Shown piece by piece: positions 1 to 19,854 of a stretch of 64,000 bases of DNA. The notes beneath the pieces are model-generated. The model was not told the DNA's origin. It did not search any database and saw nothing but the letters and a program-made list of their open reading frames with translations. Position 1 is the first letter of the stretch. Each line of letters starts with the position of its first letter. The position numbers and the translations under genes are program-made. The stretch comes from Alphaproteobacteria bacterium. GTDB lineage: Bacteria; Pseudomonadota; Alphaproteobacteria; RF32; CAG-239. The stretch is taken from positions 746 through 64,745 of the forward strand of contig JAFTII010000031.1 of the NCBI GenBank assembly GCA_017457005.1, written 5' to 3'.

Positions 1-788
1 GCTACACCAATTATGTTTCCCTTATCATCTATAATTAATCCGTTAGAATCTACTTTGCCGATAACATTACCATTAGTGTCACGAACAAACCCGTCTTCAT
101 CTATGTCACCTATAACTTTTCCGTCCGGTCCTATTGCCTTACGAACATTATGGCTGATTTTTTTGGTAGGAGCTGAAGCAGAAGTATCCTCACAAATAGT
201 ACAATCTTCTTTAGTCACAGCAGATCCGGTTACCGGTACTTTTGCAGATTTAACATTTGCTTGCCCCAAGCTAAGCTCGTACCACGAAACAATAAAATTA
301 TTTTGAACATTGCCGGCAATAACAGGCGCCCAATTCATTGTAATATGGCAAGTTTGGTTTCCACTCAAAGTTTTATCATTACAGCTATTATTAAATGTAA
401 AACCATCTGCCGGCGGTTCTGCTAATTCAACATTGACTATCTTTACAGCAACCTTGCCGTTAGTACCCAACGTAAGCACATTTTTGGCATCTGTCCCCAA
501 AACAACCTCTCCCATGGGAACAGGATTAGGCGTGGTTGTGAGAGGTATTTCGCCTTCAATGGTAGAAAATTCAATATTTTGTGCAAGTGGTGAAGCAGGA
601 TCTATATTTAACACATCTGCATTGTCATTAAAAACCGGAGCTACATACTCATTATCTGGTCTTTTACTTTTGATAAGCAAAAAAATACCAAAAATAAAAA
701 TCATTAATGAAACAAGACCAATCGTCAAAATAATACGATTAGTCTTTTTTACATATTGTTCAGAATGTGTTATATTTTCTTTTGCCAT
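1..788 (-). CDS. Bitopic membrane protein, 3' end beyond the window (ATG at 788, frame open to position 1). Positional candidate for VirB10/TrbI-like T4SS component: short cytoplasmic N-terminus, one TM helix, Pro-containing linker.
   Basis: I found this by reverse-complement translation; it is absent from the ORF track because it lacks a stop in the window. It begins MAKENITHSEQYVKKTNRIILTIGLVSLMIFIFGIFLLI and starts 10 nt after the VirB9-like gene. Assignment is by operon position and topology only. Confidence 0.35.
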   Translation of the reverse strand, partial: MAKENITHSEQYVKKTNRIILTIGLVSLMIFIFGIFLLIKSKRPDNEYVAPVFNDNADVLNIDPASPLAQNIEFSTIEGEIPLTTTPNPVPMGEVVLGTDAKNVLTLGTNGKVAVKIVNVELAEPPADGFTFNNSCNDKTLSGNQTCHITMNWAPVIAGNVQNNFIVSWYELSLGQANVKSAKVPVTGSAVTKEDCTICEDTSASAPTKKISHNVRKAIGPDGKVIGDIDEDGFVRDTNGNVIGKVDSNGLIIDDKGNIIGV

Positions 789-797
789 AGCTGTTTA

Positions 798-2408
798 TCA
801 CTGAGTTCTAACCACACTGCAAAATACACCATTACGCCCTAAAGTACCACAAACTTTATCTCCCTCAGACAACGAATCTAATTTACCGACACGTAAGTGG
901 AACAACTCTTTCCCTTGTCCGTCAGCAGGGGCATCTACAGAAAAGAACGGCTCATATTTGCCCAATTCATCAGGGTACTGAACTGTCAGCTTATCCCACA
1001 ACTTTTCAAGATTAGCAACATTATCATCTGTGCCCAGCTCAATTGAAATGTTAGAAGTATCTTCATCCGTAAAACCTGCACCATAGCCATATTCCGTCAG
1101 ATACGCCCTAGACGAAGGAGTTGCTGAATTCTTATTGGTTATCCTTTGCATTTTAGAGTAGTCAAAATTGGGGATACCGCCATTACGTCCAACTCCACTT
1201 GTTGCATATTGCGGAACAATAACTTCTCCCCCACCAACAGAGAATTCTTTTTCGCCAACAACTTGCGGGTATCCGGCAAAGGAATTAGCTTTAGCACTTA
1301 CCAGTGGTGTTTGCCCACCACCGGCATTTCCTTTTTGCATATCAGGATACGGAGGGGGAACATCCCAACTTGGAGGCAAGAAGTCTCTTGAATCAATTCC
1401 GTATTCTAATCCGGCATCATCAGCACGACGCAGTTTTATGCAAATAATGCGTTTACCGTTACGTAAAACCAAATCGCCGACACCTTCAACAATAATCAGA
1501 CGATTATCAGGTCCTTTGGTGCGGAAACCGACAGGCACTTCCACTCGCTCAACGATCATGGAGACAACAGGACGCTGCATCATGTTTAATGACTTCTTTC
1601 CTAAATCAATATATGTAAAGATATCATCTCTCCATACACGTTCAGGAGCTATAACCACATCATCAGGGTTTGGAACATAAACCTCTAAGTCAAATCTAAA
1701 CTTAGAAGGGTCTAAGGGGATACTCTTCAACCAATCGCTTTGTTGAAAACGACGTGTGTAATTAGCATCAACAGACTTTCCGCCAGAATTTACCCCTCCG
1801 GTATGAGCGCCCAATACCCCTCCGGATGCAGATCCGAAGTTTCCGTTTGCTCGCCCCTCATCATCTTTTATAACATCAATATCAATAATGGAGTTTGTCA
1901 AACGTTCGGTATTTACAGCTTCACTCTTAACATAAAATACATAACGATTTCCGGAACGTCCGAATACGATAATATTTGTATCTACCCCGACATTAGCGCC
2001 TTTACGAGGATACAACATTAATGAGTTAGGACTGGATATCTGTCCGTCAAAAGTAGCATTATCACCGATAAAAATATCTTCTACCATTTCCCATTCAGGA
2101 AAATTAAGTAAAGTGATCATTCCTTCGCGAACACGAATCGGCAAAACCAGATCCGGCGCCCAATAATAACGAGAATAAGCCGGTTTACTCTGCCCCTCAC
2201 CAAGGTTTTGCATAGGATCCAGCCACGCCTCCTGCGTCATTCCAAGAGAATTGAATCCCATATACCCCATATTCATCGGAGTATAATTTCCTTGAGCTTG
2301 ATCAGCACTGGCGTCCATCACCTGTCTGTTTACCTGTGCGGTAGCAACCGAAGAAAACAAACAACAACTCAACAATAATGATATTTTTATATTTTTAAGA
2401 AACAACAC
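798..2408 (-). CDS. Secreted 536-aa protein; positional candidate for VirB9-like outer-membrane core component of the T4SS
   Basis: N-terminal signal peptide (MLFLKNIKISLLLSCCLFSSVATAQ). Lies directly downstream of the VirB8/VirB7/VirB8 block and upstream of the VirB10-like candidate. Size exceeds typical VirB9; no motif verification was possible. Confidence 0.4.
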   Translation of the reverse strand: MLFLKNIKISLLLSCCLFSSVATAQVNRQVMDASADQAQGNYTPMNMGYMGFNSLGMTQEAWLDPMQNLGEGQSKPAYSRYYWAPDLVLPIRVREGMITLLNFPEWEMVEDIFIGDNATFDGQISSPNSLMLYPRKGANVGVDTNIIVFGRSGNRYVFYVKSEAVNTERLTNSIIDIDVIKDDEGRANGNFGSASGGVLGAHTGGVNSGGKSVDANYTRRFQQSDWLKSIPLDPSKFRFDLEVYVPNPDDVVIAPERVWRDDIFTYIDLGKKSLNMMQRPVVSMIVERVEVPVGFRTKGPDNRLIIVEGVGDLVLRNGKRIICIKLRRADDAGLEYGIDSRDFLPPSWDVPPPYPDMQKGNAGGGQTPLVSAKANSFAGYPQVVGEKEFSVGGGEVIVPQYATSGVGRNGGIPNFDYSKMQRITNKNSATPSSRAYLTEYGYGAGFTDEDTSNISIELGTDDNVANLEKLWDKLTVQYPDELGKYEPFFSVDAPADGQGKELFHLRVGKLDSLSEGDKVCGTLGRNGVFCSVVRTQ

Positions 2409-2412
2409 CTAA

Positions 2413-3135
2413 CTACTCCACCTTATTATAGGTCAATGAATATTTATCAACCGTGAATCCGACAGGATTTTTCAGCCTATCACCAAACTTAACTACTTTT
2501 CTCCGGTAACGAACACTTATAGCCGCCGTCCAATAATTAACTTCAGGCCGAACGGATTCAGGATACATATCTCTGGTTTCATACTCAACTTGCCAAATAC
2601 CATTGGCCAATTCATTAACCGAAAGTATCTTAACATCTCTGGTTAATCCGCGACTTTTAATAATATCAAGTGCTTTTTTAGCAGTATTGCGAACAAAATC
2701 ATCATAAATTCGCGGAGAAGACATTTCTTTAATCGGCCCGTCAGTACCCCAACGAGATTCCATTTCCGGAATATCGCGACTAAAAGTACTGCGCAACAAG
2801 ACATATTCCCGAACAAAGACCTCGGTTATCGCTTTTTGGCTCCGCAAACTTCCAACGATAGGGCGGATATGATAAACTTGCTCCGAACGATTTTGAAACG
2901 TCAGCAAAAACGGCTCCACACGATATAACGGCATTACCTGAAAAATAGCCAATATCAGAACTATATTGCAACATATACTAAGCGCTGTAATAATGGCAAA
3001 AGCACGTGCAGTCCACAAATAGCGTTTTTCTCCGGCATTTGCAACAAACAAATCCGAAGATGACGTATCAGGGCGCAAATTACCTCGCCCTTCTAAAAGC
3101 TTTTGTTTTCCATTCGTTCCGATTTGACTGACCAT
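2413..3135 (-). CDS. VirB8-family bitopic inner-membrane protein (T4SS), paralog 1
   Basis: 240 aa with a cytoplasmic N-terminus, one TM helix (FAIITALSICCNIVLILAIF) and a periplasmic domain ending in an NPxG motif (NPVGFTV), which is a VirB8 hallmark. Paralogous to 3442-4191 (shared VEPFLL, RNTF, RYWTA, NPxGFTV blocks). Confidence 0.6.
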   Translation of the reverse strand: MVSQIGTNGKQKLLEGRGNLRPDTSSSDLFVANAGEKRYLWTARAFAIITALSICCNIVLILAIFQVMPLYRVEPFLLTFQNRSEQVYHIRPIVGSLRSQKAITEVFVREYVLLRSTFSRDIPEMESRWGTDGPIKEMSSPRIYDDFVRNTAKKALDIIKSRGLTRDVKILSVNELANGIWQVEYETRDMYPESVRPEVNYWTAAISVRYRRKVVKFGDRLKNPVGFTVDKYSLTYNKVE

Positions 3136-3150
3136 ATACCGTTTCCTATG

Positions 3151-3339
3151 CTATATTGTTGCAACAAACCAGTCCGGAAGATTTTTAGGTAACTCAACCT
3201 CCATACAAGCACACGGAGAGAGTTTCAGCTCATTACTACCCCTACCAATACCAACCGGTTCCGGCTCATAATATGTACCAAAGCAACCGGACAATGCGAA
3301 TATAGCTATTAAAGCCAACAATTTGTAACTCATTCTCAT
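3151..3339 (-). CDS. Small lipoprotein (62 aa), VirB7-like by size and position
   Basis: Lipobox LSGC after a signal peptide. Lies between the two VirB8 paralogs, as rvhB7 does in Rickettsiales. Confidence 0.4.
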   Translation of the reverse strand: MRMSYKLLALIAIFALSGCFGTYYEPEPVGIGRGSNELKLSPCACMEVELPKNLPDWFVATI

Positions 3340-3441: not shown

Positions 3442-4191
3442 TTAGAAAATTTCTACTTCGGTTTGTGAGTATCTTACAACAGTAAAACCTAACGGATTAA
3501 GAAGTCTTCTAACCATAAACATTCGTTCTTTTATAAAATAAGCCGTAACTGACGCGGTCCAATAACGAACTCTTAATTCGGTCCTTTTTACTTCTGCATC
3601 GTAGTTGTTTACTAACTCATAAGTCTTAAAATCAACTTTCCAAATAGCACTTTTTTCTCCGCCTTGTTTCTTTAAACTGATTATTTCTACTTCTTTTGAA
3701 GTGGGGTCTTGAAACATATCTTGCCAACCGGCAGCAACTTTTTTGTAAAAAGCGTCGTAAACAGTAAATGCAGACAAATAATGGACAATTCCTCCGGGGA
3801 GCCAACGTGAGCGCATTTCCATCGCATCATTAATGAATGTATTGCGCAAAATAACATATTGACGAATAAAGGTTTCCATTAATTGCACTTTAGACGGCAT
3901 ATCAGATATAATCGGCTCGCTTCTGACAACCTCTGAAGAACTATCTTGGTTGATTATCAAAAAAGGCTCAACCGTTACCATCGGAGCTAAACGGAACAAT
4001 GCCAGAGATAAACTTATCAAAAACATTATGGAAACCGTAGCTGTCAAAACATAAAAACGAGACAACCACATATAGTATTTGTGTTTAAGGGTTTCCTTCT
4101 CTTTATCAAGTTTATTTAAAAACTCCGGAGCAGTTACGTTTCCAGTAATAACTTTTGTTTGAACGCCACTTTCTATTTGTTTATCTGCCAT
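3442..4191 (-). CDS. VirB8-family bitopic inner-membrane protein (T4SS), paralog 2
   Basis: 249 aa, single TM (VLTATVSIMFLISLSLALF), C-terminal NPLGFTVVRY (NPxG motif). Duplicated VirB8 is typical of Rickettsiales rvh systems. Confidence 0.6.
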   Translation of the reverse strand: MADKQIESGVQTKVITGNVTAPEFLNKLDKEKETLKHKYYMWLSRFYVLTATVSIMFLISLSLALFRLAPMVTVEPFLIINQDSSSEVVRSEPIISDMPSKVQLMETFIRQYVILRNTFINDAMEMRSRWLPGGIVHYLSAFTVYDAFYKKVAAGWQDMFQDPTSKEVEIISLKKQGGEKSAIWKVDFKTYELVNNYDAEVKRTELRVRYWTASVTAYFIKERMFMVRRLLNPLGFTVVRYSQTEVEIF

Positions 4192-4204: not shown

Positions 4205-7200
4205 TTAATAGTTAGAACAGTATGGAGCTTCTACAATTTCTGAACCGCTCACACTTTCCCATGCGTTTTCATGTGTATCTGCGGTATCTTTGTTGGCTTT
4301 TGCAGATTTGATACGCGCATCCAAATCTTCTTTACTGCCAACATCATCTCCGATATTTACCATTTCATTTTTGTCTTGCTTAAGTCGGGCAATAACATTT
4401 TTTAGAGTATCAACTCGCTCTTTTACCACTTTATTATCTGAGCTTATGTTTATATTTGCCTGCAAATTCTCTGCTGCAACAATAAGCTCAGACTTAATAT
4501 CATCCAAGCTTGAACGAATACCTTCATAGATCTCTTCATCTGACAGATCTACATCTTCAGGCTTTTTACCTTCTGCCAACTCATAACCGTAATTAGTCAT
4601 AATATCAAACAATTCCGTTATCTTTCCCTTATAACTTTCTTCGGTTTCTTCTTTTTGCTCTTTCATTGTATGTTCATTTTCTTTGTAGAACAAATAATTT
4701 CCTATTTGGTTTTTGGATAAAGGCGCCAACTCAACAGAAGCTAAATCTTTTTTATGATTTTTACTGTCCTTTTTGTTGTTTTCTTCAGCCCATAAAGTAT
4801 AAAAAGCATCATATACTTCATCTTTGAACATCAGCTTGCCGTCATCAACCGTCAGTAACACTCCTAATTCACTGTATTTGCAGTTAGATGTGGCTGTTTT
4901 TTCTCCAGTTCTGACATTAACATCCAAAGCACCATGATAGAGTTTGCTTTTTTTGATGGTGATACCTGCACATTTATACAAATTCTTATCATTACCGATA
5001 GTAGCATACTCTCCTTTATTGTTAATATCTACCGCCGTATCATAGCCTACCTTACATGGTAATGTACCCTGACGGAAAAATGTTTCTCGTTCACATCCGA
5101 TAGATAATATATCTTTTAATGATATTTTGGTCTCAACAAAGGCATAATCCCTCAAAAGATACTTCCAAACTTTTGGAAGCTCACCTCCGTAGTTCAAAAA
5201 ATCTTTTGCTTTTATCGGAGTATTTTTCTTGTTTCGGCGTTTTGTAATAGGCTTAACATTTTGAAAATCAGTGCTATCAAAATGTACAACTTCTCGCACA
5301 TTGGGCAAATGTTGCTCAAACATCGCCATCGGAGCTTTCATATCTCTGGACTTTGCAGGACTTCCGACAAAATAATCCTCTGATTCAGGAGCAGAATCTG
5401 ATCCGGCAACTTTAGCAAACATGGCAATATTATTTACCGCAGGTAATATACCGCCACTGATATTTATAACCAGTCCCCCGATTTCTGTCAGCATTTGCTG
5501 ATGGATATCAACTATTCTTGAATGATTCTTAGGATTATATAGAGCATCGCCCATATTTAAGATACGCTGCAAAGCCTTATCAATAATAGCATTCATCTGC
5601 GCATAAGAATCGCTTAATGCCGTATTGGCAACTTTTTCAAGTGATACATATACCAGTTCGGGAGTAAGCATCGGATTGGGATTTTCCTCCAAAGCCGTGG
5701 CTATGATAGCCAATAATCTGTTTTTTGATTGTTTTTTGGCACTGATTTCTGCGGCACTTAGAGTATCAGCAACTTTATCAAACAAAGCTTGTTTTTTATT
5801 ATTAATCTCTGTCATTGTTGCAGAATCGGCATCTTGCATATTTAACTTATATTCACGAATATCATCATCAATATTGTTTAATTTTTCATCCAATTGCGTA
5901 ATCTCGGCTCGTAAATTATCAGCTTTTTGATTTAAGTTCTCAACTCCCAACTCAGCCTTATTTGATTGTGATTGAGAGGTAAATTGAGAAGAAAGAGTTG
6001 CAGTTGAAGATACCCCTACAATAGGAGAACTTTGCGGAGTGGGAGCATCTATATCTGTTGGGAAAGGCTCTACATAATTAACATTATCAAGCATTGATTG
6101 TCCGGCATCTTCTTGTGCTTTATCTCTGGCTACAGACAACTCATTCAAGACATCTTTTAGTTCCGCATTTAGATTTTCAAGTTTTTGGGCAATGCCTTCA
6201 CGCTTGGCCATCAACTCTTGCAAGCCGCTATCTGTGGCCGATGAAGTAATTAACTCTTCCAGATCCGCCTCCAGTTGAGACATTAAATTTGCACGTTTTT
6301 TCTGATATGGTGTGTCAGACAAACCTATAGGGTTCCCTTCAAAATGACTTGCCATAACATTCAAAACATCGGCAATAGTAAAAGTTTTTAAATACTCTTT
6401 TATATTTTCATATTTTTTAGTCAAATATTGCTTATAAAAATTTTTTTCGTCATTCCAAACCAGTCTATCTGTACTTTTGGCATTGTTTCCCCATTTTGAA
6501 GGCTCTGCAGCCAGCATTTTAGATGCCTCTGCACCGACTTGCCAAGCAAGCATTTCTGCTCGCCGAGATTCTTCAACTTGCTTTTCTGAATTACTGGTAG
6601 TGTTTACATTTGCTTCTTCTTTACTCAGGATTTCATTTGCAACTTTATTATCAGAATCATAGACATCAGAATTTTCTGACGCGGTTTCATAATCAATATC
6701 CGGAGATTGAACATCTTCGGTATCGATTGAAGATGTTTCGGCAGCTTTTGCCGCTTCATGATATTGTATTGCCCAACCGAGTATTCCGCTTTCGCCATCT
6801 TCTCCAAAGCAAATATTTTTACATTCTTGCGCAGTAGGATTATTAAAATAACTGCAAATATAATTTGAAGTACATTGTTCAGATAATCGTAGTGCTTCTA
6901 TTGCGGCTTGATGACGAAGCCTTGTATCTCTGACACTTTCTGCAGCATGTTTATAAGCACTTAAGCCATTTATGAGGTTATGCACTTCTCTTGCACCACT
7001 GACTTTTTCTTCCAAAGGGGCTATCTTATTAAGCTCTTCCATTTGATCTTCTACACTTACGTAAGCATGTTCTGACGGAGAATCTTTGGCAACGACAAAT
7101 CCGATTACTCCATCCGGTATCTCTATTTCTTCGGTGTCATCCGCTTGTGCTGCAGCTTTTTCTTTTTCAGCGGCCAACTCTTCTTGCAAAGCCTCCTCCG

Positions 7201-8068
7201 TTGAAGTATCATCTTGTGAAACTTGGGCAAAAGATATTTCTTCTTGGTGAGAAATTACCGTAGCAAGTTCAAATTCATTATTTTTGTTCAAAAAGGCTTG
7301 TTTATCAGATGTTTTTACATAATTTAACGGCCTGATATCACGCAAAGATTTTACAGCAATATATTGTGCTTTAAGTGCGGTAACTTTTAATAGCAACTCA
7401 TATAATTGGTCAACAGCTTCAAATGCTTTACCAACAACAAATGCCGCATCATTACTGGCATCAGGAGAACCAATACCGCATGTGTTTGCATCTCCGGTAA
7501 TACAGGCAATGGTTTCATCAAGCTTGGGTCCTATATCATTGGCCATTTCTGTCTCTAGTTCTCTTATGGTCGTATATATTTCCAACAAATTATCTACATA
7601 AAAATTTTCACGGCGTGTATCATAAGATTGCATATCCACAATAGAATTAGACGGATAGCGAAGCAATAATAACTGAATTAAATCAAAAACATCTTCTGAA
7701 GAGGTATTTTTATATTCTTTTCCTAAATATACACAATTTTCTAATCCTCTCTCACCAGCAGTTTCTCCTCCGCCTTCGTTATTGCCGCCACCTCCGGACT
7801 TGCCTGCAAATGATATTATCTTATTAATATTACCGGAAAACATACTTTTCGTTGAAGCAAAAAGATTATTTGCATCAGAAATAACCTGATTACCAAAACT
7901 TTGGACTTGCGTTCCTAAATCCGTAATATTGGTAAAAATAGAGCCAACCTGATCCAAAGGGTCCATCATCGGACAGAAATCCATCGGAGGACAATACGGC
8001 ATTGCCTTTACTGCAGAACTAAAAAGCATTATTATAATTGCCGGTATTATAAGAAGATGTTTTTTCAT
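4205..8068 (-). CDS. Very large (about 1287 aa) secreted protein, acidic and coiled-coil rich with Cys-containing N- and C-terminal modules; unknown function, T4SS-operon encoded
   Basis: Start probably the ATG at 8068 (MKKHLLIIPAIIIMLFSSAVKA signal peptide), preceded by GGGGAGG and overlapping the upstream stop (TAATG). No TM helices beyond the signal peptide. Cys motifs include CPPMDFCPMM and CTSNYICSYFNNPTAQECKNIC. Confidence 0.55.
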   Translation of the reverse strand: MKKHLLIIPAIIIMLFSSAVKAMPYCPPMDFCPMMDPLDQVGSIFTNITDLGTQVQSFGNQVISDANNLFASTKSMFSGNINKIISFAGKSGGGGNNEGGGETAGERGLENCVYLGKEYKNTSSEDVFDLIQLLLLRYPSNSIVDMQSYDTRRENFYVDNLLEIYTTIRELETEMANDIGPKLDETIACITGDANTCGIGSPDASNDAAFVVGKAFEAVDQLYELLLKVTALKAQYIAVKSLRDIRPLNYVKTSDKQAFLNKNNEFELATVISHQEEISFAQVSQDDTSTEEALQEELAAEKEKAAAQADDTEEIEIPDGVIGFVVAKDSPSEHAYVSVEDQMEELNKIAPLEEKVSGAREVHNLINGLSAYKHAAESVRDTRLRHQAAIEALRLSEQCTSNYICSYFNNPTAQECKNICFGEDGESGILGWAIQYHEAAKAAETSSIDTEDVQSPDIDYETASENSDVYDSDNKVANEILSKEEANVNTTSNSEKQVEESRRAEMLAWQVGAEASKMLAAEPSKWGNNAKSTDRLVWNDEKNFYKQYLTKKYENIKEYLKTFTIADVLNVMASHFEGNPIGLSDTPYQKKRANLMSQLEADLEELITSSATDSGLQELMAKREGIAQKLENLNAELKDVLNELSVARDKAQEDAGQSMLDNVNYVEPFPTDIDAPTPQSSPIVGVSSTATLSSQFTSQSQSNKAELGVENLNQKADNLRAEITQLDEKLNNIDDDIREYKLNMQDADSATMTEINNKKQALFDKVADTLSAAEISAKKQSKNRLLAIIATALEENPNPMLTPELVYVSLEKVANTALSDSYAQMNAIIDKALQRILNMGDALYNPKNHSRIVDIHQQMLTEIGGLVINISGGILPAVNNIAMFAKVAGSDSAPESEDYFVGSPAKSRDMKAPMAMFEQHLPNVREVVHFDSTDFQNVKPITKRRNKKNTPIKAKDFLNYGGELPKVWKYLLRDYAFVETKISLKDILSIGCERETFFRQGTLPCKVGYDTAVDINNKGEYATIGNDKNLYKCAGITIKKSKLYHGALDVNVRTGEKTATSNCKYSELGVLLTVDDGKLMFKDEVYDAFYTLWAEENNKKDSKNHKKDLASVELAPLSKNQIGNYLFYKENEHTMKEQKEETEESYKGKITELFDIMTNYGYELAEGKKPEDVDLSDEEIYEGIRSSLDDIKSELIVAAENLQANINISSDNKVVKERVDTLKNVIARLKQDKNEMVNIGDDVGSKEDLDARIKSAKANKDTADTHENAWESVSGSEIVEAPYCSNY

Positions 8069-9315
8069 TATAACATACCTCCCCATCCACTGTCTTCATC
8101 GCTATCATCTGTAGAATCATTGTCGGTATTTGTAGTACCGGTTTCTGTTTCGTTATTACCGTTTTTTTTATTACTGTTGTAGCCCACTTTTTCCGGGTCA
8201 GCATAATCACACAAATTAAATTTACCAGTAACCTCTTTTAGAGCAATCCCATTAATATTGTTTACATCTTGGGCGGTTTGTGTTTTCAGATCCTCAATAA
8301 GGACATCTACCAAATTGCGTATTACTCTTATTTGATTGGCTAGCGTTTCTCCAAGCGCATTTGAAGCCTCCGACTCACCGGGATATGTTGCTGCAACATC
8401 GGCGTTTGCATCAATATTATCTTTATCTACAACCATGCTGTTGCGAAGTTTTGCCATTTTTACCAATGCCTGACCGGAACTTTCTTGCATTTGCTTAATT
8501 CTTGCTTTTTTAATCTGAAGTTCTTCTTTAATGGATACTGCGTGAGTTTTAGCAGATATTTTATCAAGAGTATCTTTTATTGCTTCATCTGCACTTTTCT
8601 TTACTTTAGAAAGTCCTTTGTCAGCAAGATCTTTAGCAATTGCGGCAGCTATGGCAGCCAGTTCGGTAGCAAGAGCTTTGACCTCTGTATCTAAAGCGGT
8701 AATTTTGCTCTTATGCTCTTCATTTAATGCAACCAATTTATTATTTTGCACTTCAACATCTTGGTTAAGTTGGTTTTCTATTTGTGTGATTTGGTTGTGT
8801 ATGCTTTCAACCCCTGCAGTATCACCTCTTGTTTCCAGTACACCGATATTTTTACGTAAAGATTCTATATCAGCATCAGCTTCGGTTTTTAAGATTTCTA
8901 TTTCTTCTTCTATAGCCTTAACATCAGCCTGATTTTGTTCCTGAGCTTTTGACTTTTGTACTTCTAATTTTGCTATTTTAGTTGAGATTATAGCTGATTG
9001 CCCGACCGGACTTTGGACTACATTTTGAACCTTACCATATATATTATTTATTTTCTCTTTCATTCCGCTAATAAAACCTTTAGCTTCTTTTGCCTTTTCA
9101 ATACCTTTTCCTACAAATTTTCCAAATTGAGAATTTTGAATACCATCTAAAATTTCTTCTGCTTTTGTTTTGATATTTTGAATAGCATTAGTAAGTTTAG
9201 ATGGAGTTTTGCCCAAATCAAATTTAACAAAAAATGCAGAAGCATCTGATGCCGAATATGTAATTGCTATAAATAAGACCAAACAGAAACTGATATATCT
9301 AAGGAGTTTGTTCAT
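8068..9315 (-). CDS. Secreted all-helical coiled-coil protein (about 415 aa); possible elongated VirB5-like or pilus-associated protein
   Basis: Likely start MNKLLRYISFCLVLFIAITYSASDASA (ATG at 9315 after GAGGAGG), overlapping the stop of the upstream gene. Long heptad-like helical sequence with an acidic C-terminal tail. Confidence 0.5.
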   Translation of the reverse strand: MNKLLRYISFCLVLFIAITYSASDASAFFVKFDLGKTPSKLTNAIQNIKTKAEEILDGIQNSQFGKFVGKGIEKAKEAKGFISGMKEKINNIYGKVQNVVQSPVGQSAIISTKIAKLEVQKSKAQEQNQADVKAIEEEIEILKTEADADIESLRKNIGVLETRGDTAGVESIHNQITQIENQLNQDVEVQNNKLVALNEEHKSKITALDTEVKALATELAAIAAAIAKDLADKGLSKVKKSADEAIKDTLDKISAKTHAVSIKEELQIKKARIKQMQESSGQALVKMAKLRNSMVVDKDNIDANADVAATYPGESEASNALGETLANQIRVIRNLVDVLIEDLKTQTAQDVNNINGIALKEVTGKFNLCDYADPEKVGYNSNKKNGNNETETGTTNTDNDSTDDSDEDSGWGGML

Positions 9316-9316
9316 A

Positions 9317-10390: not shown

Positions 10391-13117
10391 TTAGATGTTA
10401 ACATTTTTCCGATTATTAATATCCGTAGAATAAAAATTATGTATTTCGGATATGTTAATCATACTTGATAATATCTCTATCAAACGTATAGAGTTTTTAG
10501 CTGTTTGAGCAGACAATTTAATTAATTCACTTTGAAGTTTATTGATATCAGATCCTTCCGCACCTTCAGATGATGCGGGGCTTCCGCTTGCGCCACCGAA
10601 TTTTGCAGTCAAAACATCTTTTTGAACATCCTCAAAGTCTCCGGCTTCAGATTTTAACTTAAATGCGGTTTCTAAGTAATGTTTATTAATTTCATGCAAA
10701 ATTTGATCTCTTACCAAAACAAAGCCATCTTCCTCTTTTAAATTTGCAAGATAGTTTTTACATTCTTCCAATTTTGCAGAATCTTGAGCTGTTTCACTGT
10801 CTAATCCGCAAACCAAAGCCATTGTCGGAGGAATAATAAAAGTATCATCCGATGATGTTCCGTTATCTTTACCTCTATTGCCGGAAATTTTAATTTTTTT
10901 CAGTTCTTCTTCGCTATAATTTCTAAAAACAAAATTTTGATAATTAAAAATATTTGTCATTGCCAACTGCGAACTATATATTTTCAGTAATGAATTTATT
11001 TGCATATCTATACCTTTAGCTAATTCTACAATATTAGCATAGGCATCACTTTTGTGGGAATCAGCCGCATACAAAACCGGTTCAACATGTTTTTCTTCAA
11101 AAGCATCAGCATCATTTATAAGTTTGAACGCATCTGCAATAACTGCCGCGGCATAACGTGCCAAAACATCCATATAGAATTTCGGCGCTTCCGAAATTGA
11201 ATCGGTTTGCGCTTTTAGTCGCTCCTCATTATATTTAACTAAACATGCATTTATGACACCTTTTTCCAGAGCATCATTTGAGCTAATATTTCCACAAGAC
11301 ATTCCCATATTTTGAGGGATAATAAACGTACCATTTACGTCTGTACCGCCATCAGGAAGGCTTAGCGCCATCGCAAAAGCCATATTATCTTGATGATGTA
11401 TATTTGCGGCAATTGTTATACTATCTTTTTCCAACATGGACTTTTGAAAAGGTTTTAACGATTGTTTCTTATCGTCAATGACCCCTTGCATTGTTTTAAT
11501 TGAAGAAAGTGTCTCATCTTTCATCGGAATTTCAGCACTGACATCTAAGTCTTTATCTATTGTTAGGACCTTTGGCGCTTCTTCTGTTGTTTCTGTGGTA
11601 TCTTCAGCTTCTGTTTCTTCAGAAGCTGAAGCTTCTTCCGTCTCACTATCCGGAGTTTGGAACGGACTACGCAAACCTGTGCTACCTTCTTCAACATCTG
11701 CCGGAAGAGGGACAGAAAAACCTAACTCGTCATCCGAGGTCTCATCTTCCGTGTCTTCTATTTCTTCTTCTGATTTGATATCTTCCGGTATTACAAGCTC
11801 ATTCGTTATTGGCGGTAATACTCCTAAGTTTGCATTTGGCATATTTAAAGTATTCATCGGAGCATTGCCATAAGGCATCGGTGTGTTTATGCTTCCGGTG
11901 GTAGAATTTCTAAACCCTCTGCGACTAGTTGGCACTCTGTTATTGTTGGTTGTTCTTGGTTTGTTAAGTGTAGTACCGGATGTATTTGTTGAAGTTTGGG
12001 GAGTGATTGAAGATGATGTATCTTCTGTGACGGTACTTTCTTCCGTTTCTTCAGAAGTAGGATCTTCTCCTTTCGTTTCACTATCCGGAGTTTGGAACGG
12101 ACTGCGTAAACCTATAGTCTTTCCTTCAACATCTGTTGGAAGAGGAACAGAAAAACCTAACTCATCATCAGCTGTATCATCTTCATCATCAGTATCTTCA
12201 TCATCCGGAAGAGGTGTCTCATTTATTGGCGGCAACATTTCTTCCCCCTCAACAATAGGCAAGCCTAAAGTGTTTGTCGGAGTATCACCATAAGGTAATG
12301 GTGTGCTTATTTCTCCGCCGGAAGGAGTTATGAAACTATTGCGACTGGGGGTTATGGGCTTAGAGCTACCGCTTGAGCCTGAATTGCTAGGCATCATGGG
12401 CGGAGTTGCTTCGGAGGTTTCCGGCGAAACCTCAGGAACAGTCGTTTGTGGGGTGGGTTCTAATACAGGTTCTTCTTCCTCGCCTAAGGCTCCTTTTGCC
12501 ATATCGGCGTAATCTTCAACCTTATCCTTAATATCTTTTGCTTGCTCTATATAGCCTTCAGCTTGAGATTTAACATCTTCTACCTTGTCTTTGATATCTT
12601 CTACTTTGTCTTTTACGTCTTCTACTTTATCTTTGACATTTTGTACAGTTGATTTAGCCTGCTCCACATAGCCTTCAGCTTGAGATTTTATGTCTTCTAC
12701 CTTATTTTTGACATCTTCTACTTTGTCTTTGACCTCATCAACCTTATCTTTAACATCTTGTACTTTTTCTTCTATTTGACTTTTATATTTATCAAATTCT
12801 TTTTTGTAGTTTTCAGCTTTTTCTTTATAGTCATTAACTTTTTTAATTGCGGCGTCTATCTTTTTCTTATTCTCTACGACATATTCTTGCACTGTTGCTT
12901 TTGCGGTTCCAATTGCAGCAGAAGTTTTTTGCACGGTTTTCATCGCGTTGATTACTGTTTGAGACTGCTGAATTTGGGTAAACCATTGCTTGATGGTTTT
13001 AATAAAGCTCATTGAATCCAAGGCAGGCAATTGAGCATAAGCACCAGAAGGAAAACTAATACACATAAAACCAGCTAAAAACATTCCGATGATGTATGTT
13101 TTTGTTTTATTTTTCAT
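10391..13117 (-). CDS. Secreted repeat protein (about 908 aa) with four parts: coiled-coil heptad repeats, a duplicated acidic Pro-rich block, a Ser/Thr/Pro-rich linker and a duplicated Cys-containing C-terminal module; unknown function
   Basis: Start ATG at 13117 (MKNKTKTYIIGMFLAGFMCISFPSGAYAQ) after GGGAGGGTGAA. Repeats VEDVKDKVEDIK; duplicated DDELGFSVPLPxDVE...GLRSPFQTPDSET; C-terminal duplicated FIIPQNMGMSCG / FIIPPTMALVCG modules. No TM helices. Confidence 0.55.
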   Translation of the reverse strand: MKNKTKTYIIGMFLAGFMCISFPSGAYAQLPALDSMSFIKTIKQWFTQIQQSQTVINAMKTVQKTSAAIGTAKATVQEYVVENKKKIDAAIKKVNDYKEKAENYKKEFDKYKSQIEEKVQDVKDKVDEVKDKVEDVKNKVEDIKSQAEGYVEQAKSTVQNVKDKVEDVKDKVEDIKDKVEDVKSQAEGYIEQAKDIKDKVEDYADMAKGALGEEEEPVLEPTPQTTVPEVSPETSEATPPMMPSNSGSSGSSKPITPSRNSFITPSGGEISTPLPYGDTPTNTLGLPIVEGEEMLPPINETPLPDDEDTDDEDDTADDELGFSVPLPTDVEGKTIGLRSPFQTPDSETKGEDPTSEETEESTVTEDTSSSITPQTSTNTSGTTLNKPRTTNNNRVPTSRRGFRNSTTGSINTPMPYGNAPMNTLNMPNANLGVLPPITNELVIPEDIKSEEEIEDTEDETSDDELGFSVPLPADVEEGSTGLRSPFQTPDSETEEASASEETEAEDTTETTEEAPKVLTIDKDLDVSAEIPMKDETLSSIKTMQGVIDDKKQSLKPFQKSMLEKDSITIAANIHHQDNMAFAMALSLPDGGTDVNGTFIIPQNMGMSCGNISSNDALEKGVINACLVKYNEERLKAQTDSISEAPKFYMDVLARYAAAVIADAFKLINDADAFEEKHVEPVLYAADSHKSDAYANIVELAKGIDMQINSLLKIYSSQLAMTNIFNYQNFVFRNYSEEELKKIKISGNRGKDNGTSSDDTFIIPPTMALVCGLDSETAQDSAKLEECKNYLANLKEEDGFVLVRDQILHEINKHYLETAFKLKSEAGDFEDVQKDVLTAKFGGASGSPASSEGAEGSDINKLQSELIKLSAQTAKNSIRLIEILSSMINISEIHNFYSTDINNRKNVNI

Positions 13118-13192: not shown

Positions 13193-15622
13193 CTAAATAT
13201 TTAAATATTTTGTAACAAAGTTATCTTCTCCATATTCTTTAATAAGTTCTTCAACCAGCAAAACATTTTTGCGGCCGGAATTATACAAGCGCAAATAAGG
13301 TCCTAAGCCGCTCAAATCCACATCAAGTATTACTGACTCTCCGGTTGCCGGACGAGATAATAAAATAGCATAAGGAAAATCACGATAACTTTTACCGAAA
13401 ATAAAATCTATTTCTGAGCCAGTTAAATTCCAGTTTTCGTAGTCTTCTACCGTTGCCTGAGGATTACGGAAAAAGATAACGGTTTGACATTGTCCGCGAA
13501 TAACTTCTCCAACGCCCAAACGGTCAATAATATTCGGCTGCTGGAATGCACACAAATATGCCTGACGTTTTTTACGACCTTCTTGCAAACCAATTACAAA
13601 ATAATCTCTAAACATCGGGTGCTTAAGCATTGGAGCCGTTTCATCAATCATGATAAGCGACGGAACACCGGTTTCTCCGGTTTCTGATTGGATACGGTGC
13701 ATAATATAGCTGATAACAGCAGGAGCTAACGTTTCATCCTCAAAAATATGAGTAAAATCAAATGCCATAAACCGTTTTGCTTTAAGGTCCAAACTATCAG
13801 TATCGCCGTTAAAAATTTTTCCGTATTGATCAGGATTAACCCACTTAAACAACTCCCTACGCATATTACCGGTAGGCGAAAAACAACTTTTATATAAGTT
13901 TGTCATCAGGCGTTCACTGGGACGTAAATAATCAAAAGCGGTTGTAACCGCACGAGCTATTTCTTTCTCAGAAATGGCGTCATCAACTAATGTGATAGCT
14001 CGCATCCATCTTCTTAAAAAAGCGCGGTTATTAGCATTATTTTCACAGTCAAACGGATTAAGCGAAACATTTTTTTCATCGCCCTCAAAACCAATGTATG
14101 CGCCCCCGATAGAACGAGTAAATATTTCTGCACCGCGGTGTCTGTCAAAGAAGAATACCTTTAAGTCATGATGGCGCATGGCCTGACCTGCCAAAAAGGT
14201 AAGCAACGTTGTCTTACCTTGACCGGTAGGACCGATAATACAACAGTGGGCAACAGCAGAATCATCGCCGGAAACATGGAACTGAAACCGGTATGCTGAT
14301 CCTGATGTTGTACGAAATACTGTAATAGCTCCCTTACCCCAGTCACTTTTAGCGAATCCTTCTGACGGTTTATCAAAACAAATTGCTGCTGCTACTACGC
14401 GGGACAAATAACGATAGGTCCGAGGCAGTACTTCATAAGTCGGAAACTGATTAAAAAACGTGGCTTGAGCAACCCAACCTTCTCTAACCGGGGTAACACC
14501 GAATAATCGGCAAATTCGTTGAACTTCACTTTCGGCAAATTCAATATCATCTTTGGTATCGCCTTGTAAAAGTATTGCCATTGCATATTCGGTCAGTGAT
14601 TGGTGATTGGCATCGCTATCTTCTATTGCTCCCAAAACTTCACTATATTGGTTGATTACATCTGAAGAAAAACTGGTCATTAAAGCCATACGTTGTTGTT
14701 GCATAAGCAACGCACGAGCTTGCGGCTTGAATATCGGACGAATATTGTGCAACAATACCAGCTCACTATCTATAGAGAGCAAGGAAGTTATCATGCTTTC
14801 ATCCATATAATCTCCGGATGAACGAATCCCCATTGCTGCCGCATATTTTTCCTTATCGCCGCTAAAAAAGCGGATAAGACCGTTTTCTCCGGTAAAATGA
14901 ATATGATCAGATGTCAAAAGCTCATTAAGATGATAGCCTTCCGCACTACCGATTTTTGGTTGAGGGCGGGTTATCGGACTACATATTTTTGCGTAAACAG
15001 AAAGAGGACCATCTTCTGCAGGACTTCCTTCAGCTTCAAAAAGTGTGGTTACACCATAATCATTAAGAGTGGCTATCAATGATTGAGAGGCATAATTTAA
15101 ATCTTTGAGATTATCATCTCTATCCACTACCGAAAGAACTATATAGTGAGAATTACTATATACACGGCTAAGATTAGAACTCCATGTATTGTCAATGTTC
15201 TCCAACAAAGCATTGTCAAAGTCTTTTTTATTTTCTTCCAGTGCCACACGTTCACGCAAAGTTATAATTCGGCAAGTTATTTGTAAGTCAGACATTCCGT
15301 CAATCCATGCTTTTCGGGCTTCCATCATGGATATAACTTTTTCATCAGTGACAAAGGCCAAATCAACTCCCGTTACTTTAAAAACACGCGCTAACGAACC
15401 GTTATAGCAACGGATAGTCATGCCATCGGACAACAACTTATTAAAAGGCAAAAAGTCCGAAACACGAGACTCTCTGGGATGTGGCAACACATAGTGCCCA
15501 AACTTGGTTGCCCAAAAACCGGCAAATGCCGCAGCAGAGACGAATCCTATTGCAGCAACAATAACTTCTAACGAACTTAAGCCTTGCACGAAAGTGCTAA
15601 AAAAATCAAAATCAGGGTGCAA
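13193..15622 (-). CDS. virB4: VirB4/TrbE/CagE-family T4SS ATPase
   Basis: 809 aa with N-terminal hydrophobic segments. Walker A GPTGQGKTT, DEAW-like box IMIDETAPML, and C-terminal RKKRQAYLCAFQQPNIIDRL (the RKxN...TQS..D motif). Overlaps virB3 by 11 nt. Confidence 0.85.
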   Translation of the reverse strand: MHPDFDFFSTFVQGLSSLEVIVAAIGFVSAAAFAGFWATKFGHYVLPHPRESRVSDFLPFNKLLSDGMTIRCYNGSLARVFKVTGVDLAFVTDEKVISMMEARKAWIDGMSDLQITCRIITLRERVALEENKKDFDNALLENIDNTWSSNLSRVYSNSHYIVLSVVDRDDNLKDLNYASQSLIATLNDYGVTTLFEAEGSPAEDGPLSVYAKICSPITRPQPKIGSAEGYHLNELLTSDHIHFTGENGLIRFFSGDKEKYAAAMGIRSSGDYMDESMITSLLSIDSELVLLHNIRPIFKPQARALLMQQQRMALMTSFSSDVINQYSEVLGAIEDSDANHQSLTEYAMAILLQGDTKDDIEFAESEVQRICRLFGVTPVREGWVAQATFFNQFPTYEVLPRTYRYLSRVVAAAICFDKPSEGFAKSDWGKGAITVFRTTSGSAYRFQFHVSGDDSAVAHCCIIGPTGQGKTTLLTFLAGQAMRHHDLKVFFFDRHRGAEIFTRSIGGAYIGFEGDEKNVSLNPFDCENNANNRAFLRRWMRAITLVDDAISEKEIARAVTTAFDYLRPSERLMTNLYKSCFSPTGNMRRELFKWVNPDQYGKIFNGDTDSLDLKAKRFMAFDFTHIFEDETLAPAVISYIMHRIQSETGETGVPSLIMIDETAPMLKHPMFRDYFVIGLQEGRKKRQAYLCAFQQPNIIDRLGVGEVIRGQCQTVIFFRNPQATVEDYENWNLTGSEIDFIFGKSYRDFPYAILLSRPATGESVILDVDLSGLGPYLRLYNSGRKNVLLVEELIKEYGEDNFVTKYLNI

Positions 15623-15902
15623 ATTTATTCCCCTTTTCTTTATATAGGTTATTAGATGTTTTGGCAGACTGACCGTAAGCCTGAATCATTGCGGAAACAT
15701 GAGGCTCTTTAGCCCCGATAGCTATGCAAACCAGATGCCCGATAACCAGTGAGCCCATAAACCACAGTGGGTTAGCATTAATTGTTCCGACACACATAAA
15801 CATTATCGGAAACTGGATACCCATATTAAGCAGAACCGGTAAAAACGGCCCCCACATAATTTTAGGCGGATTAGCTACGGCTTTGAGAATAATTTCACGC
15901 AT
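15612..15902 (-). CDS. virB3: VirB3/TrbD-like small membrane protein
   Basis: 96 aa with two hydrophobic helices, immediately upstream of and overlapping virB4. Size and position are typical of VirB3. Confidence 0.6.
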   Translation of the reverse strand: MREIILKAVANPPKIMWGPFLPVLLNMGIQFPIMFMCVGTINANPLWFMGSLVIGHLVCIAIGAKEPHVSAMIQAYGQSAKTSNNLYKEKGNKFAP

Positions 15903-18389: not shown

Positions 18390-18544
18390 CGCTGTTCTCC
18401 TGTAGTACAAGGCTCTATAAAATAGAGCATACGAATCCCTTTTGATTTATTATAACACATAAATTACTTATAAAGTGTTACAGTTTTTTGATTTTTTTGA
18501 AGGAATTTTCTAAAACTAAGGCAACTGAATTTATATTAGACTGC

Positions 18545-19306
18545 CTATTCTGCCGGTACTGCCGGTGTTTCTTGATCAACCGTAACACGCCTTGTTTCAC
18601 CCAGACCCGTTTCAAAAGTATCACCATAGAAAATTGTCGTTGTATCACCGGTAATATAAGTTACAATACCTCCGGCTGCCGCCAAAGCTGCCAACCCGAC
18701 AACAAGAGCTGCAAACCATTTCCAATTAATTTTGCCAAAGATAGCTCCAAAAGCCACACCAACAAGACCAAAACCGCCAACAATAAAGATAACAATCTTT
18801 AAATCTTTAAAAGTCTTAATTCCCTTATATAAAGCTAAGGTCAGAAGGGATGTTGTTGACTCTGCAAATGTTACAAAATTGGAACTGTCTGTATTCAGAG
18901 TATCTGTAATCATATTTTGGGTAAAGCCTTTGCAGCCGATAATCATATCAACAAGTTCTCCGGTACTGGCAATAACCACCAAAGAAATAACTATCGCTCC
19001 AAGCCACTTCCAGTTTAAGTTACCAAAGAATCCTCCGACAGCAACTCCGAGGATACCAAAGCCGGCAACAATATAGATTAAATCTCTAAGACCATTATAA
19101 ATTTTTATTCCGGTACCAACCAAACCCTCAAACAAGCCGCTTGAAGTGATACAACCGGTCATGGAAGTGTCTTGAGAGTTGCCTCCGGAATTTGTACCAC
19201 CGGATGCCGGTGGGGGAGTATCCTCAGCAAACACGGGGGCAACATAAGCACCAAAAGCAAAAGACAATGCGATAAGCATATATAGATATCTTAACCCTTT
19301 CATCAT
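18545..19306 (-). CDS. Tandem-duplicated VirB2/TrbC-like pilin (two pilin units in one polypeptide)
   Basis: Likely start MMKGLRY at 19306 after GGAGG. Signal peptide, then two repeats of the hydrophobic helix, K/N-x-NWKW(F/L) loop, hydrophobic helix pattern (GFGILGVAVGGFFGNLNWKWLGAIVISLVVIA and GGFGLVGVAFGAIFGKINWKWFAALVVGLAALA). Confidence 0.5.
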   Translation of the reverse strand: MMKGLRYLYMLIALSFAFGAYVAPVFAEDTPPPASGGTNSGGNSQDTSMTGCITSSGLFEGLVGTGIKIYNGLRDLIYIVAGFGILGVAVGGFFGNLNWKWLGAIVISLVVIASTGELVDMIIGCKGFTQNMITDTLNTDSSNFVTFAESTTSLLTLALYKGIKTFKDLKIVIFIVGGFGLVGVAFGAIFGKINWKWFAALVVGLAALAAAGGIVTYITGDTTTIFYGDTFETGLGETRRVTVDQETPAVPAE

Positions 19307-19434
19307 TGCCTCCGTATTATATGTTTGTGAAATTATGTTATTAAATTTCAACCAATTTTAATTGATTGAGGTTTAATAACACCAAATTAGAAAGTAATCC
19401 GGAGAGCCGGCAAGCTCTCCGGATCTTTATAATA

Positions 19435-19854
19435 CTATTCTCCTTCTCCGCCTTCAGTGTCTCCACCAGAATCAGCGGTAACGCCAATAGCGGCACCGGA
19501 ACTAGCACCAAAAGTATCGCCATAACGACCGGTTGTTGCATCACCGGTTGCGTAAGTTACGATAGCACCGGCAGCTGCCAAGATTGCCAAACCTACGGCA
19601 AGACCGGCAAACCATTTCCAGTTAATCTTACCAAAGATAGCTCCGAAAGCCACACCGACAAGACCAAAACCACCAACAATAAAGATAATGGTTCTTACGG
19701 CTCTAAAGGTATTAACACCCTTAGATGCAGCCAAAGACATTATTGAAGTATTTGAGTTGGCAGTGCCTTGAGCTAAAGCATCGCCGGACATTCCGAGCAG
19801 AGCAAAAACTGCTACCATAAAAAATGTCCAAAAATTGTTTTTAATAAATCGCAT
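19435..19854 (-). CDS. virB2: VirB2/TrbC-like T4SS pilin (single unit, 139 aa)
   Basis: Signal peptide ending ALAQG, then two Gly-rich hydrophobic helices separated by KINWKWF, resembling the ISWMFG loop of Agrobacterium VirB2. AGGAGAA Shine-Dalgarno. First gene of the minus-strand operon. Confidence 0.55.
   Translation of the reverse strand: MRFIKNNFWTFFMVAVFALLGMSGDALAQGTANSNTSIMSLAASKGVNTFRAVRTIIFIVGGFGLVGVAFGAIFGKINWKWFAGLAVGLAILAAAGAIVTYATGDATTGRYGDTFGASSGAAIGVTADSGGDTEGGEGE

Follow-up and report, generated by a model that had tools for sequence, protein, structure and literature searches.

The locus considered here lies at the start of a 64,000-nucleotide (nt) stretch of contig JAFTII010000031.1, from an uncultured alphaproteobacterium (GCA_017457005.1); this whole stretch is referred to as the window. 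Its first 20 kilobases (kb) carry a packed set of minus-strand genes resembling a VirB-type type IV secretion system (T4SS), with five genes for secreted coiled-coil proteins in the middle and no recognizable VirB6, and the question raised is what kind of machine such a set encodes. The locus is a VirB-type (P-type, MPF_T-like) T4SS that is fixed in the chromosome. It belongs to a known kind of T4SS, of which it forms a new variant, and is more unusual than the original prediction from the sequence had described. We consider it fairly probable that the system is a lineage-fixed one of conjugative ancestry which has been remodelled, likely for cell contact and/or export independent of VirD4 and less likely for DNA conjugation.

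Products were compared with the Pfam and NCBIfam profile libraries (the latter including TIGR00929) and, by BLASTP, with annotated Microvirga proteins, and transmembrane helices and signal peptides were mapped. The Microvirga genes belong to the closest annotated relative obtained by a translated search of plasmids, which is found at 671-686 kb of plasmid pMVF16-3 of Microvirga sp. VF16 (NZ_CP069357.1). There, a MobA/L relaxase is followed further on by VirB2, VirB3, VirB4, three genes designated h273, h228 and h428, a lipoprotein, VirB8, VirB9, VirB10 and VirB11, and then by two small genes and VirD4. The h273 and h428 products are secreted, and VirB4 is annotated as a 'hypothetical protein'. 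The features of the window locus, with lengths in amino acids (aa) and expectation values (E), are as follows, in the order of transcription.

19435-19854, minus strand: VirB2 paralogue 1 (139 aa); Pfam TrbC, E 4.9e-8; signal peptide and two transmembrane helices
19396-19425, minus strand: hairpin of 13 base pairs (bp), 7 of them G-C, directly 3' of the first VirB2 gene; top match of a scan for terminator-like structures
18545-19306, minus strand: tandem VirB2 (253 aa); two TrbC domains, Pfam E 4.3e-10; signal peptide and four transmembrane helices
16122-18389, minus strand: VirB2 fusion (755 aa); TrbC, E 1.2e-5, 25.9 bits, below the cut-off of 27.9
15612-15902, minus strand: VirB3 (96 aa); two transmembrane helices; Pfam E 0.018, below the cut-off; BLASTP E 9e-9 to the annotated Microvirga VirB3
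13193-15622, minus strand: VirB4 ATPase (809 aa); PF03135 (CagE_TrbE_VirB), E 3.5e-15; TIGR00929, E 1.2e-115
10391-13117, minus strand: p908 (family fam0), first gene after VirB4; signal peptide, no transmembrane helix; mature N-terminus QLPALDS
9868-10377, minus strand: p169 (fam4), secreted coiled-coil protein; signal peptide, no transmembrane helix; 27 members, in one subclade only
9317-9871, minus strand: p184 (fam3), secreted helical protein of a family of ~150-290 aa; signal peptide, no transmembrane helix; 52 members, plus the related fam5
8068-9315, minus strand: p415 (fam2), secreted coiled-coil protein; signal peptide, no transmembrane helix; 72 members, one invariant Tyr
4205-8068, minus strand: p1287 (fam1), large secreted protein; conserved globular regions at both termini, with a coiled coil between them; C-terminal end PYCxxY
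3442-4191, minus strand: VirB8 paralogue a (249 aa), bitopic; PF04335, E 2.2e-12
3151-3339, minus strand: VirB7-like lipoprotein (62 aa); lipobox LSGC; 54% identical to a 58-aa Microvirga lipoprotein upstream of VirB8, E 4e-10
2413-3135, minus strand: VirB8 paralogue b (240 aa), bitopic; PF04335, E 3.1e-22; 33% identical to Microvirga VirB8, E 1e-35
798-2408, minus strand: VirB9 (536 aa); CagX, PF03524, E 1.6e-12 over aa 79-325; 200-aa C-terminal extension
2-788, minus strand: N-terminal half of VirB10, first 262 aa; the full 1216 aa were read from the identical contigs L083/L085

The fifteen open reading frames (ORFs), all of which had been predicted at these minus-strand positions, lie back to back between positions 2 and 19854, with 96% of the sequence coding and a widest gap of 219 nt. 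They run as three VirB2 genes, VirB3, VirB4, five genes for secreted helical proteins, VirB8, VirB7, VirB8, VirB9 and VirB10. Overlaps of 11 nt (VirB3/VirB4, 15612/15622), 4 nt (p169/p184, 9868/9871) and 1 nt (p415/p1287, at 8068) join neighbouring genes, and a 1-nt gap at 9316 separates p184 from p415. A single contiguous, tightly packed operon, as first proposed, is therefore real, but its extent of ~20 kb was set too small. In contigs 100% identical to the window, the half of VirB10 that carries the TrbI domain and then VirB11 continue the operon past the window start, and the whole gene cluster comes to ~28 kb. Because the gene after VirB11 is convergent, the operon ends at VirB11.

A whole lineage of gut bacteria has kept the system. 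In a scan of one genome per species, VirB4 proteins 73-94% identical to that of the window were found in at least 121 genomes. Nearly all of the carriers are labelled as uncultured Alphaproteobacteria or Proteobacteria (for example 'Proteobacteria bacterium CAG:495' and 'uncultured Azospirillum sp. UMGS63') and come from human, deer, rumen and other gut samples; we take them to belong to GTDB order RF32, family CAG-239. In a large protein index VirB4 has matches in 753 clusters made at 90% identity, and those with names are mostly called 'hypothetical protein'. A word-index search with VirB4 was saturated by this lineage and yielded no intermediate relatives, and a full-text literature search returned no paper linking RF32 or CAG-239 to a secretion system.

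Conservation is very uneven along the operon. Between the window and the nearest species, identity is 94% for VirB4, 88-89% for VirB8b and VirB9, 45-57% for the five secreted proteins in the middle of the operon (hereafter the middle proteins) and 40% for the VirB2 fusion. Over all loci the median identity of the middle proteins is 27-39%, versus 81% for VirB4, and in genomes with VirB4 at 73-94% they are 20-57% identical. Compared with the scaffold, the middle proteins evolve much more quickly.

The scaffold itself is well supported. VirB2, VirB4, both copies of VirB8 and VirB9 are recognized by Pfam or NCBIfam profiles. The Pfam match of VirB3 is weak, but its two transmembrane helices, its position and its BLASTP match to an annotated VirB3 argue for the assignment. 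VirB4 is 39% identical to its Microvirga counterpart over 94% of its length, versus ~22-29% for canonical VirB4 proteins.

The three VirB2-like genes of the original prediction are borne out by their TrbC matches, the third falling just under the Pfam cut-off, and together they hold four VirB2 domains. Paralogue 1, the first gene of the operon, is 36% identical to the annotated Microvirga TrbC/VirB2 (BLASTP, E 2e-16) and is probably the major pilin. Both halves of the tandem VirB2 match Microvirga VirB2, and its counterpart in relatives is a pair of separate genes encoding 112-154 aa each. The fusion consists of a signal peptide, a coiled coil of ~440 aa, a VirB2 domain at about aa 463-556 and a 200-aa C-terminal extension, and in BLASTP it matches both Microvirga VirB2 (E 2e-11) and paralogue 1 (E 9e-17). 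Two short VirB2 genes and a third gene containing a VirB2 domain precede VirB3 in every sampled species; orthologues of the third were found in 60 relatives and are hypervariable in length, between 222 and 2058 aa. A fusion of VirB2 with VirB5 was also considered for this protein and dropped, as the extension gave a single BLASTP match to Microvirga h273 (E 0.002) and profile comparison lent no support.

The packing of the genes is that of one transcription unit, but the hairpin directly after the first pilin gene means that transcription may be attenuated there and may not be uniform along the operon. The hairpin has no clean T-run. It is a possible attenuator, which from its position could set the ratio of pilin to machinery.

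The two VirB8 paralogues flank VirB7 and are 34% identical to each other, as distant as they are from the single VirB8 of Microvirga. In PDB, both copies match best to three chains that bear the name VirB8 and are presumably Bartonella entries; only 7 and 3 chains fall under E 0.01 for the two copies. No Pfam model matches the 62-aa lipoprotein, which is 53-100% identical in 50 loci; its lipobox and its identity to the gene in the VirB7 position of the Microvirga system agree with the VirB7-like role first proposed. VirB9 is 32% identical to the 550-aa VirB9 of Microvirga (BLASTP). Both are almost twice the canonical length, and the C-terminal 200 aa of the window copy (window 798-1400) give a faint match to the peptidoglycan-binding SPOR domain (E 0.075), which is also seen in one relative.

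VirB10 is regarded as one polypeptide that joins both membranes. In this lineage it is encoded by two genes. The gene at the window edge had been taken for a truncated VirB10; it is indeed related to VirB10, but it is only the N-terminal half, without TrbI, and its partner lies outside the window. This first half comprises a short cytoplasmic tail, one transmembrane helix, a beta-sandwich with two Cys residues, and beta-flower repeats; profile searches give Bflower_2 at E 2.5e-73 and no TrbI domain. Its beta-sandwich aligns weakly (11.6 bits) with the N-terminal part of the unsplit Microvirga VirB10. The second half, the next gene past the window start, encodes ~1500 aa with a signal peptide, further beta-flower repeats and TrbI (Pfam E 5e-32), the latter matching ComB10 (E 6.7e-33) and VirB10 (E 3.6e-29) in NCBIfam. 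The repeats span roughly 1000 aa in each half. A VirB11-type ATPase of 322 aa with a T2SSE match follows, as had been looked for outside the window, and then a gene on the opposite strand.

The two-gene arrangement is kept in four species, namely that of the window and three more with VirB4 81-90% identical. The first gene always ends in QEVAKNRRN, with GGAGG contained in its last codons, and the KNRRN codons are invariant in the four species. The second gene starts a few bases on, in a frame that varies by species, and encodes a cleavable signal peptide followed by QEITAINF(D/N)G. The GGAGG serves as the ribosome-binding site for a TTG start of the second half (L083:12348-20536, L093-L095); gene callers overlook this start and with it the signal peptide. 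A single VirB10 interrupted by frameshifting or read-through was rejected. The conserved two-gene layout, the varying frame offset, and the ribosome-binding site, start codon and signal peptide of the second gene's own indicate that VirB10 is truly split, and the sequences predict an inner-membrane-anchored part and a Sec-exported part carrying the TrbI outer-membrane domain. A scan of Joint Genome Institute (JGI) metagenomes with VirB10 found nothing.

VirB6 is regarded as a near-universal polytopic platform for the pilus and the substrate path. No product of the operon matches TrbL/VirB6 in Pfam and none is a VirB6-like polytopic protein; the ~70 related operons likewise have no polytopic gene between VirB4 and VirB8. 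With 96% of the operon coding and so narrow a widest gap, there is no room for a hidden VirB6 gene. The transmembrane maps, the coding density and the relatives are thus in agreement on this point. The original prediction, that the locus has no polytopic protein, stands as far as VirB6-like proteins are concerned, but formally fails on the tandem VirB2, which is the only operon product with more than two transmembrane helices and is not VirB6-like.

VirB1 is also missing from the locus, and neither VirD4, a relaxase nor an integrase is encoded within ~44 kb upstream or ~10 kb downstream of the operon. The sequence read in any genome reaches at most 10 kb beyond the locus, and VirD4 was found neither in the 64-kb window nor in the 10 kb past VirB11. 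In the Microvirga system the VirB6 position is occupied by h228 (228 aa, L088:23216-23902), which has three or four transmembrane helices. It matches neither TrbL nor a small 4-sequence VirB6 profile in hhalign, and could be a VirB6 that has diverged very far or a membrane protein of other origin. The gut operons have no counterpart of h228, and comparison of the middle families with the same 4-sequence profile gave no significant match.

The five middle proteins, of 908, 169, 184, 415 and 1287 aa, each have an N-terminal signal-like hydrophobic segment and no further transmembrane helix, in accordance with the signal-peptide coiled-coil proteins originally predicted between VirB4 and VirB8. 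Searches with single sequences and family profiles against Pfam, NCBIfam and PDB returned coiled-coil noise only, and the description of this section as non-canonical holds. Across the lineage there are between 3 and 7 ORFs from VirB4 to the first VirB8, all with a signal peptide and in a fixed order of families: fam0 in 1-3 copies, fam4 in the one subclade, fam3 or fam5, fam2, and fam1, a protein of 1200-1800 aa, always last.

Beyond its N-terminus, p908 consists of a coiled coil, two P/T/S/E-rich repeats that are 53% identical, and two helical domains of ~180 aa with a Cys pair, which occur alone in other species as paralogues of 180-230 aa. The p184 family has no Pfam, NCBIfam or PDB match. 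The p415 family always lies directly upstream of a p1287-like gene, and its PDB matches are to coiled coils only. The p1287 family is present in all complete loci, always last before VirB8, and has 19 invariant residues. Among 1.84 billion clustered proteins, no more than 165 representatives contain its C-terminal region; those of full length (1053-1855 aa) share the same architecture with the domain at the C-terminus, and the remaining matches are shorter entries. A profile of this globular C-terminal domain has zero PDB matches. In a strain assembly that is otherwise 100% identical, 10 nt (L086:3732-3741) replace 51 nt of the p1287 gene (window ~6310-6360) and break it into ORFs of 599 and 692 aa; this may reflect a genuine deletion that inactivates the gene, or a mistake in the assembly.

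The original prediction placed these proteins in place of both VirB5 and VirB6. The first half of that statement is not supported, in view of fam0, which occupies the VirB5 slot and in essentially all loci directly follows VirB4. Right after the signal peptide its mature N-terminus reads (Q/G/F)(I/V/L/W)P(T/V/A)(I/L/V/F)D in essentially every species (AQLPALDS, AQIPVTDS and AFLPTIDAS are examples), with Asp34 and Gly70 near-invariant. The same motif starts the mature TrwJ of R388 (QGIPVFDG, PDB 7O3V) and two of the three annotated VirB5 proteins that were retrieved. In TrwJ the motif is followed ~36-38 residues later by AVTGGRG, and fam0 has a conserved AIGxAK at equal spacing. A stricter form of the motif occurs in 22 of 97 fam0 members, 2 of 76 fam1 members and no member of fam2 to fam5. 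The fam0 hidden Markov model (HMM) gives a collinear match of 20.5 bits to Microvirga h273, which in turn has a faint full-length match to PF07996 (VirB5, E 0.17); PF07996 was seen in no gut middle protein. The VirB5-type mature N-terminus of the first middle protein suggests that VirB5 is present after all, with p908 and its family probably being an elaborated VirB5.

The middle families also resemble one another. In hhalign comparisons fam0 is linked through its N-terminus to fam2 and fam4 (97-98% probability) and through a C-terminal module of 100 residues to fam3 (95%); the N-terminus of fam1 is linked to the whole of fam3 (91%), and fam2 to fam4 over 173 columns (97%). On these grounds the other four middle proteins look like paralogues of p908, which would make the whole section a VirB5-derived array.

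Comparison with the Microvirga system suggests where this arrangement came from. Both share the order VirB2, VirB3, VirB4, secreted proteins, VirB7, VirB8, a long VirB9, VirB10 and VirB11, with identities of 39% for VirB4, 32% for VirB9, 29-33% for VirB8, 54% for VirB7 and 33% for the TrbI region of VirB10. The first protein past VirB4 has the same QxPxLDS mature N-terminus in both, and in both VirB10 has a transmembrane helix and a beta-sandwich with two Cys residues before TrbI. The Microvirga system differs in having a single VirB2, a single VirB8 and an unsplit VirB10 of 590 aa without beta-flower repeats. It also has only three genes between VirB4 and VirB7, including the 228-aa polytopic one, and possesses VirD4 and a MobA/L relaxase. 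From these likenesses the gut system looks like a descendant of the conjugative T4SS family that includes pMVF16-3. The Agrobacterium VirB/VirD4 and R388 Trw systems likewise share the VirB2, B3, B4, B7, B8, B9, B10 and B11 scaffold in its canonical order; they have a VirB5-type protein right past VirB4 with an IPVxD-like mature N-terminus, to which p908 would correspond. In contrast to them, the gut locus has no VirB6, no VirB1 and no nearby VirD4, its VirB8 is duplicated, its VirB10 is split and expanded by repeats, and a VirB5 of ~220 aa would be expanded to a 3-7-gene array with a total of ~3000 aa.

The operon is divergent from a second apparatus, from which it is separated by a single intergenic region.

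19855-20151, no strand: intergenic region between the T4SS and the divergent type IVb pilus operon

The neighbouring operon (window 20152-30928, plus strand) encodes a complete type IVb pilus of the Tcp/Bfp-like kind. It begins with a 512-aa protein without a Pfam match, a TcpQ-domain lipoprotein, a secretin and two unknown proteins, and continues with a T2SSE ATPase, a T2SSF platform protein and two pilins of the Bundlin/PilS type (Pfam). The divergent arrangement of pilus and T4SS is kept in at least 50 of 80 related loci, and this synteny suggests a joint colonisation locus.

In the account that we favour, the polytopic gene, VirD4 and the relaxase were lost, at least from the locus, and the duplications, the split of VirB10 and the repeats were gained. 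The gene in the VirB5 position would have been elaborated and duplicated into the 3-7 Sec-exported, fast-evolving helical paralogues. The VirB3/4/8/9/10/11 scaffold would assemble a pilus-like or surface structure from the VirB2 paralogues, with the VirB5-like array as its tip or decoration, and a major pilin expressed at a high level would be in keeping with the hairpin that follows the first pilin gene. The two halves of VirB10 may bridge a widened or flexible gap in the envelope through their repeat regions. Such an apparatus would serve contact with host or neighbouring cells, probably acting together with the adjacent type IVb pilus, and DNA conjugation would be less likely. It may, in addition, act as an exporter of periplasmic proteins that arrive through Sec, with no coupling protein involved, by analogy with Bartonella Trw and Bordetella Ptl, the latter of which exports Sec-delivered pertussis toxin in this manner.

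The closest functional analogy would be Bartonella Trw, a T4SS derived from conjugation that has no VirD4, in which VirB2 and VirB5 are amplified and diversified and which acts in adhesion to host cells. Trw differs in that it keeps VirB6 and VirB7 and co-amplifies them, its paralogues are of near-canonical size, and its VirB10 is intact. Enlargement of VirB10 homologues by internal repeats is known from CagY of the Helicobacter Cag system and DotG of the Legionella Dot/Icm system, which also have many system-specific accessory proteins. These involve other repeat types within one polypeptide, in contrast to the beta-flower repeats and two genes here.

Several points weigh against the remodelled, contact-directed system set out above. 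Its function is read wholly from the genes. The case for VirB5 consists of gene position, a short motif and weak links between profiles: hhalign comparison of the middle families and the Microvirga proteins with a 3-sequence VirB5 profile gave no significant match, and TrwJ is not among the 60 PDB matches listed for the fam0 N-terminal profile. Shared signal peptides and coiled-coil composition may inflate the hhalign probabilities between middle families. AlphaFold2 models of the N- and C-terminal regions of p1287, built from 17-sequence alignments, reached a mean predicted local distance difference test (pLDDT) score of only 46 and 55 and were unusable; Foldseek with the better model returned nothing below E 0.38. 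Finally, VirD4, VirB6, VirB1 and a relaxase could be encoded elsewhere in the genome.

A bolder form of the same account is possible, but is held only tentatively. It supposes that the machine truly has neither VirB6 nor VirD4, that the VirB5-derived array and the VirB2 fusions build a stalk or pilus base, and that the two VirB10 proteins are joined via ~2000 residues of beta-flower repeat; this would be a distinct T4SS subtype for contact with gut host or microbes.

Among the other explanations, the one that survives best takes the five Sec-signal proteins as cargo, that is, as effectors or adhesins pushed out without a coupling protein in the way that Ptl exports pertussis toxin. All five have a signal peptide and no transmembrane helices, no VirD4 is nearby, their very fast divergence would fit proteins that face a host or competitors, and their number varies from 3 to 7 between species. 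However, four families in a fixed order, packed with 1-11-nt overlaps among scaffold genes, suit stoichiometric parts better, and the first family has the VirB5-type N-terminus. We regard the proteins as unlikely to be cargo, but this explanation overlaps the favoured one and does not exclude it.

The locus might instead be the mating-pair apparatus of an integrated conjugative element whose VirB6, VirD4 and relaxase lie beyond the stretches read. The relaxase and VirD4 of the Microvirga relative and the retention of VirB11 point in this direction, and since the stretches read end within 10 kb of the locus, the rest of the genome could hold the other components. However, the operon is flanked by housekeeping genes and the pilus operon, without integrase, relaxase or VirD4 over the distances given above, and its synteny with the pilus operon extends to at least 50 of 80 species. 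VirB4 diverges by degrees across the lineage, a pattern that fits vertical inheritance better than a mobile element, and neither giant expansions of repeats nor surface proteins that are hypervariable would usually be expected in a conjugation system. This makes a conjugative element quite improbable.

A resemblance to the rvh systems of Rickettsiales had been pointed out originally, and the locus could in principle be a member or close offshoot of these, with the five middle proteins replacing five RvhB6 paralogues. What marks out rvh is that VirB4, VirB8 and VirB9 are duplicated, that VirB6 is multicopy and that VirB5 is lacking (PMC11077975), and the gene order here parallels islet A (virB3, virB4a, virB6a-e) followed by islet C (virB8a, virB7, virB8b, virB9b, virB10, virB11, virD4) (PMC2653234). 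The likeness extends to the VirB8-VirB7-VirB8 arrangement, to several large proteins between VirB4 and VirB8, and to a chromosomal, lineage-wide occurrence in a host that is also an alphaproteobacterium. However, the duplicated VirB8 is the only one of these hallmarks seen here; neither multicopy VirB6 nor a second VirB4 or VirB9 is present in the operon or window. The middle of rvh consists of polytopic VirB6 paralogues, whereas the middle proteins here have no transmembrane helices and VirB6 is absent from the locus. The rvh genes are scattered in islets, keep VirD4 and have no VirB5, and here a VirB5-like protein is probably present. Among the PDB chains matched by the two VirB8 copies under E 0.01, none was recognized as Rickettsia RvhB8, and the copies are no nearer to the VirB8 of Rickettsia than to that of Bartonella. 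The Microvirga system, which is rhizobial, plasmid-borne and the nearest one annotated, has just one VirB8. Membership in rvh is thus very unlikely, and the resemblance may be convergent.

Least probable is a system for the uptake or release of DNA, like ComB or that of gonococci, which would draw on ComB10 being the best NCBIfam match of the TrbI domain and on the lack of VirD4 in the locus, but the difference in score to VirB10 is trivial, nothing related to DNA is encoded nearby, and VirB11, multiple pilins and large secreted proteins are not known as features of ComB.

The remainder of the window is ordinary chromosome, with gpsA, transfer RNA (tRNA), YidC-like, DnaJ-like and S1-like genes. 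Two further regions were noted. At window 59022-61894 (plus strand), the N-termini of three adjacent genes look like those of a vWA protein, a PP2C-type phosphatase and a protein kinase, the last with C-terminal transmembrane helices; judged by eye from the sequence, the trio resembles the known TerY-phosphatase-kinase triad. Window 32000-35100, between tRNA-Ser(GGA) and tRNA-Arg(CCT), has a G+C content of 30%, versus ~37%, with small unannotated ORFs, and may be a small island.

A whole lineage carries this operon without VirB6, and two conserved genes stand where a one-piece VirB10 would be expected. Should these bacteria truly lack VirB6, models of T4SS assembly would need an alternative to the platform it provides. 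Human and ruminant guts commonly harbour the carriers, which are uncultured Alphaproteobacteria, and because even the VirB4 of these bacteria is labelled 'hypothetical protein' in public annotations, the system is invisible in standard surveys. Both the fast evolution of its surface-type parts and the linked operon for a type IVb pilus suggest that these prevalent commensals have an undescribed apparatus for colonisation or interaction.

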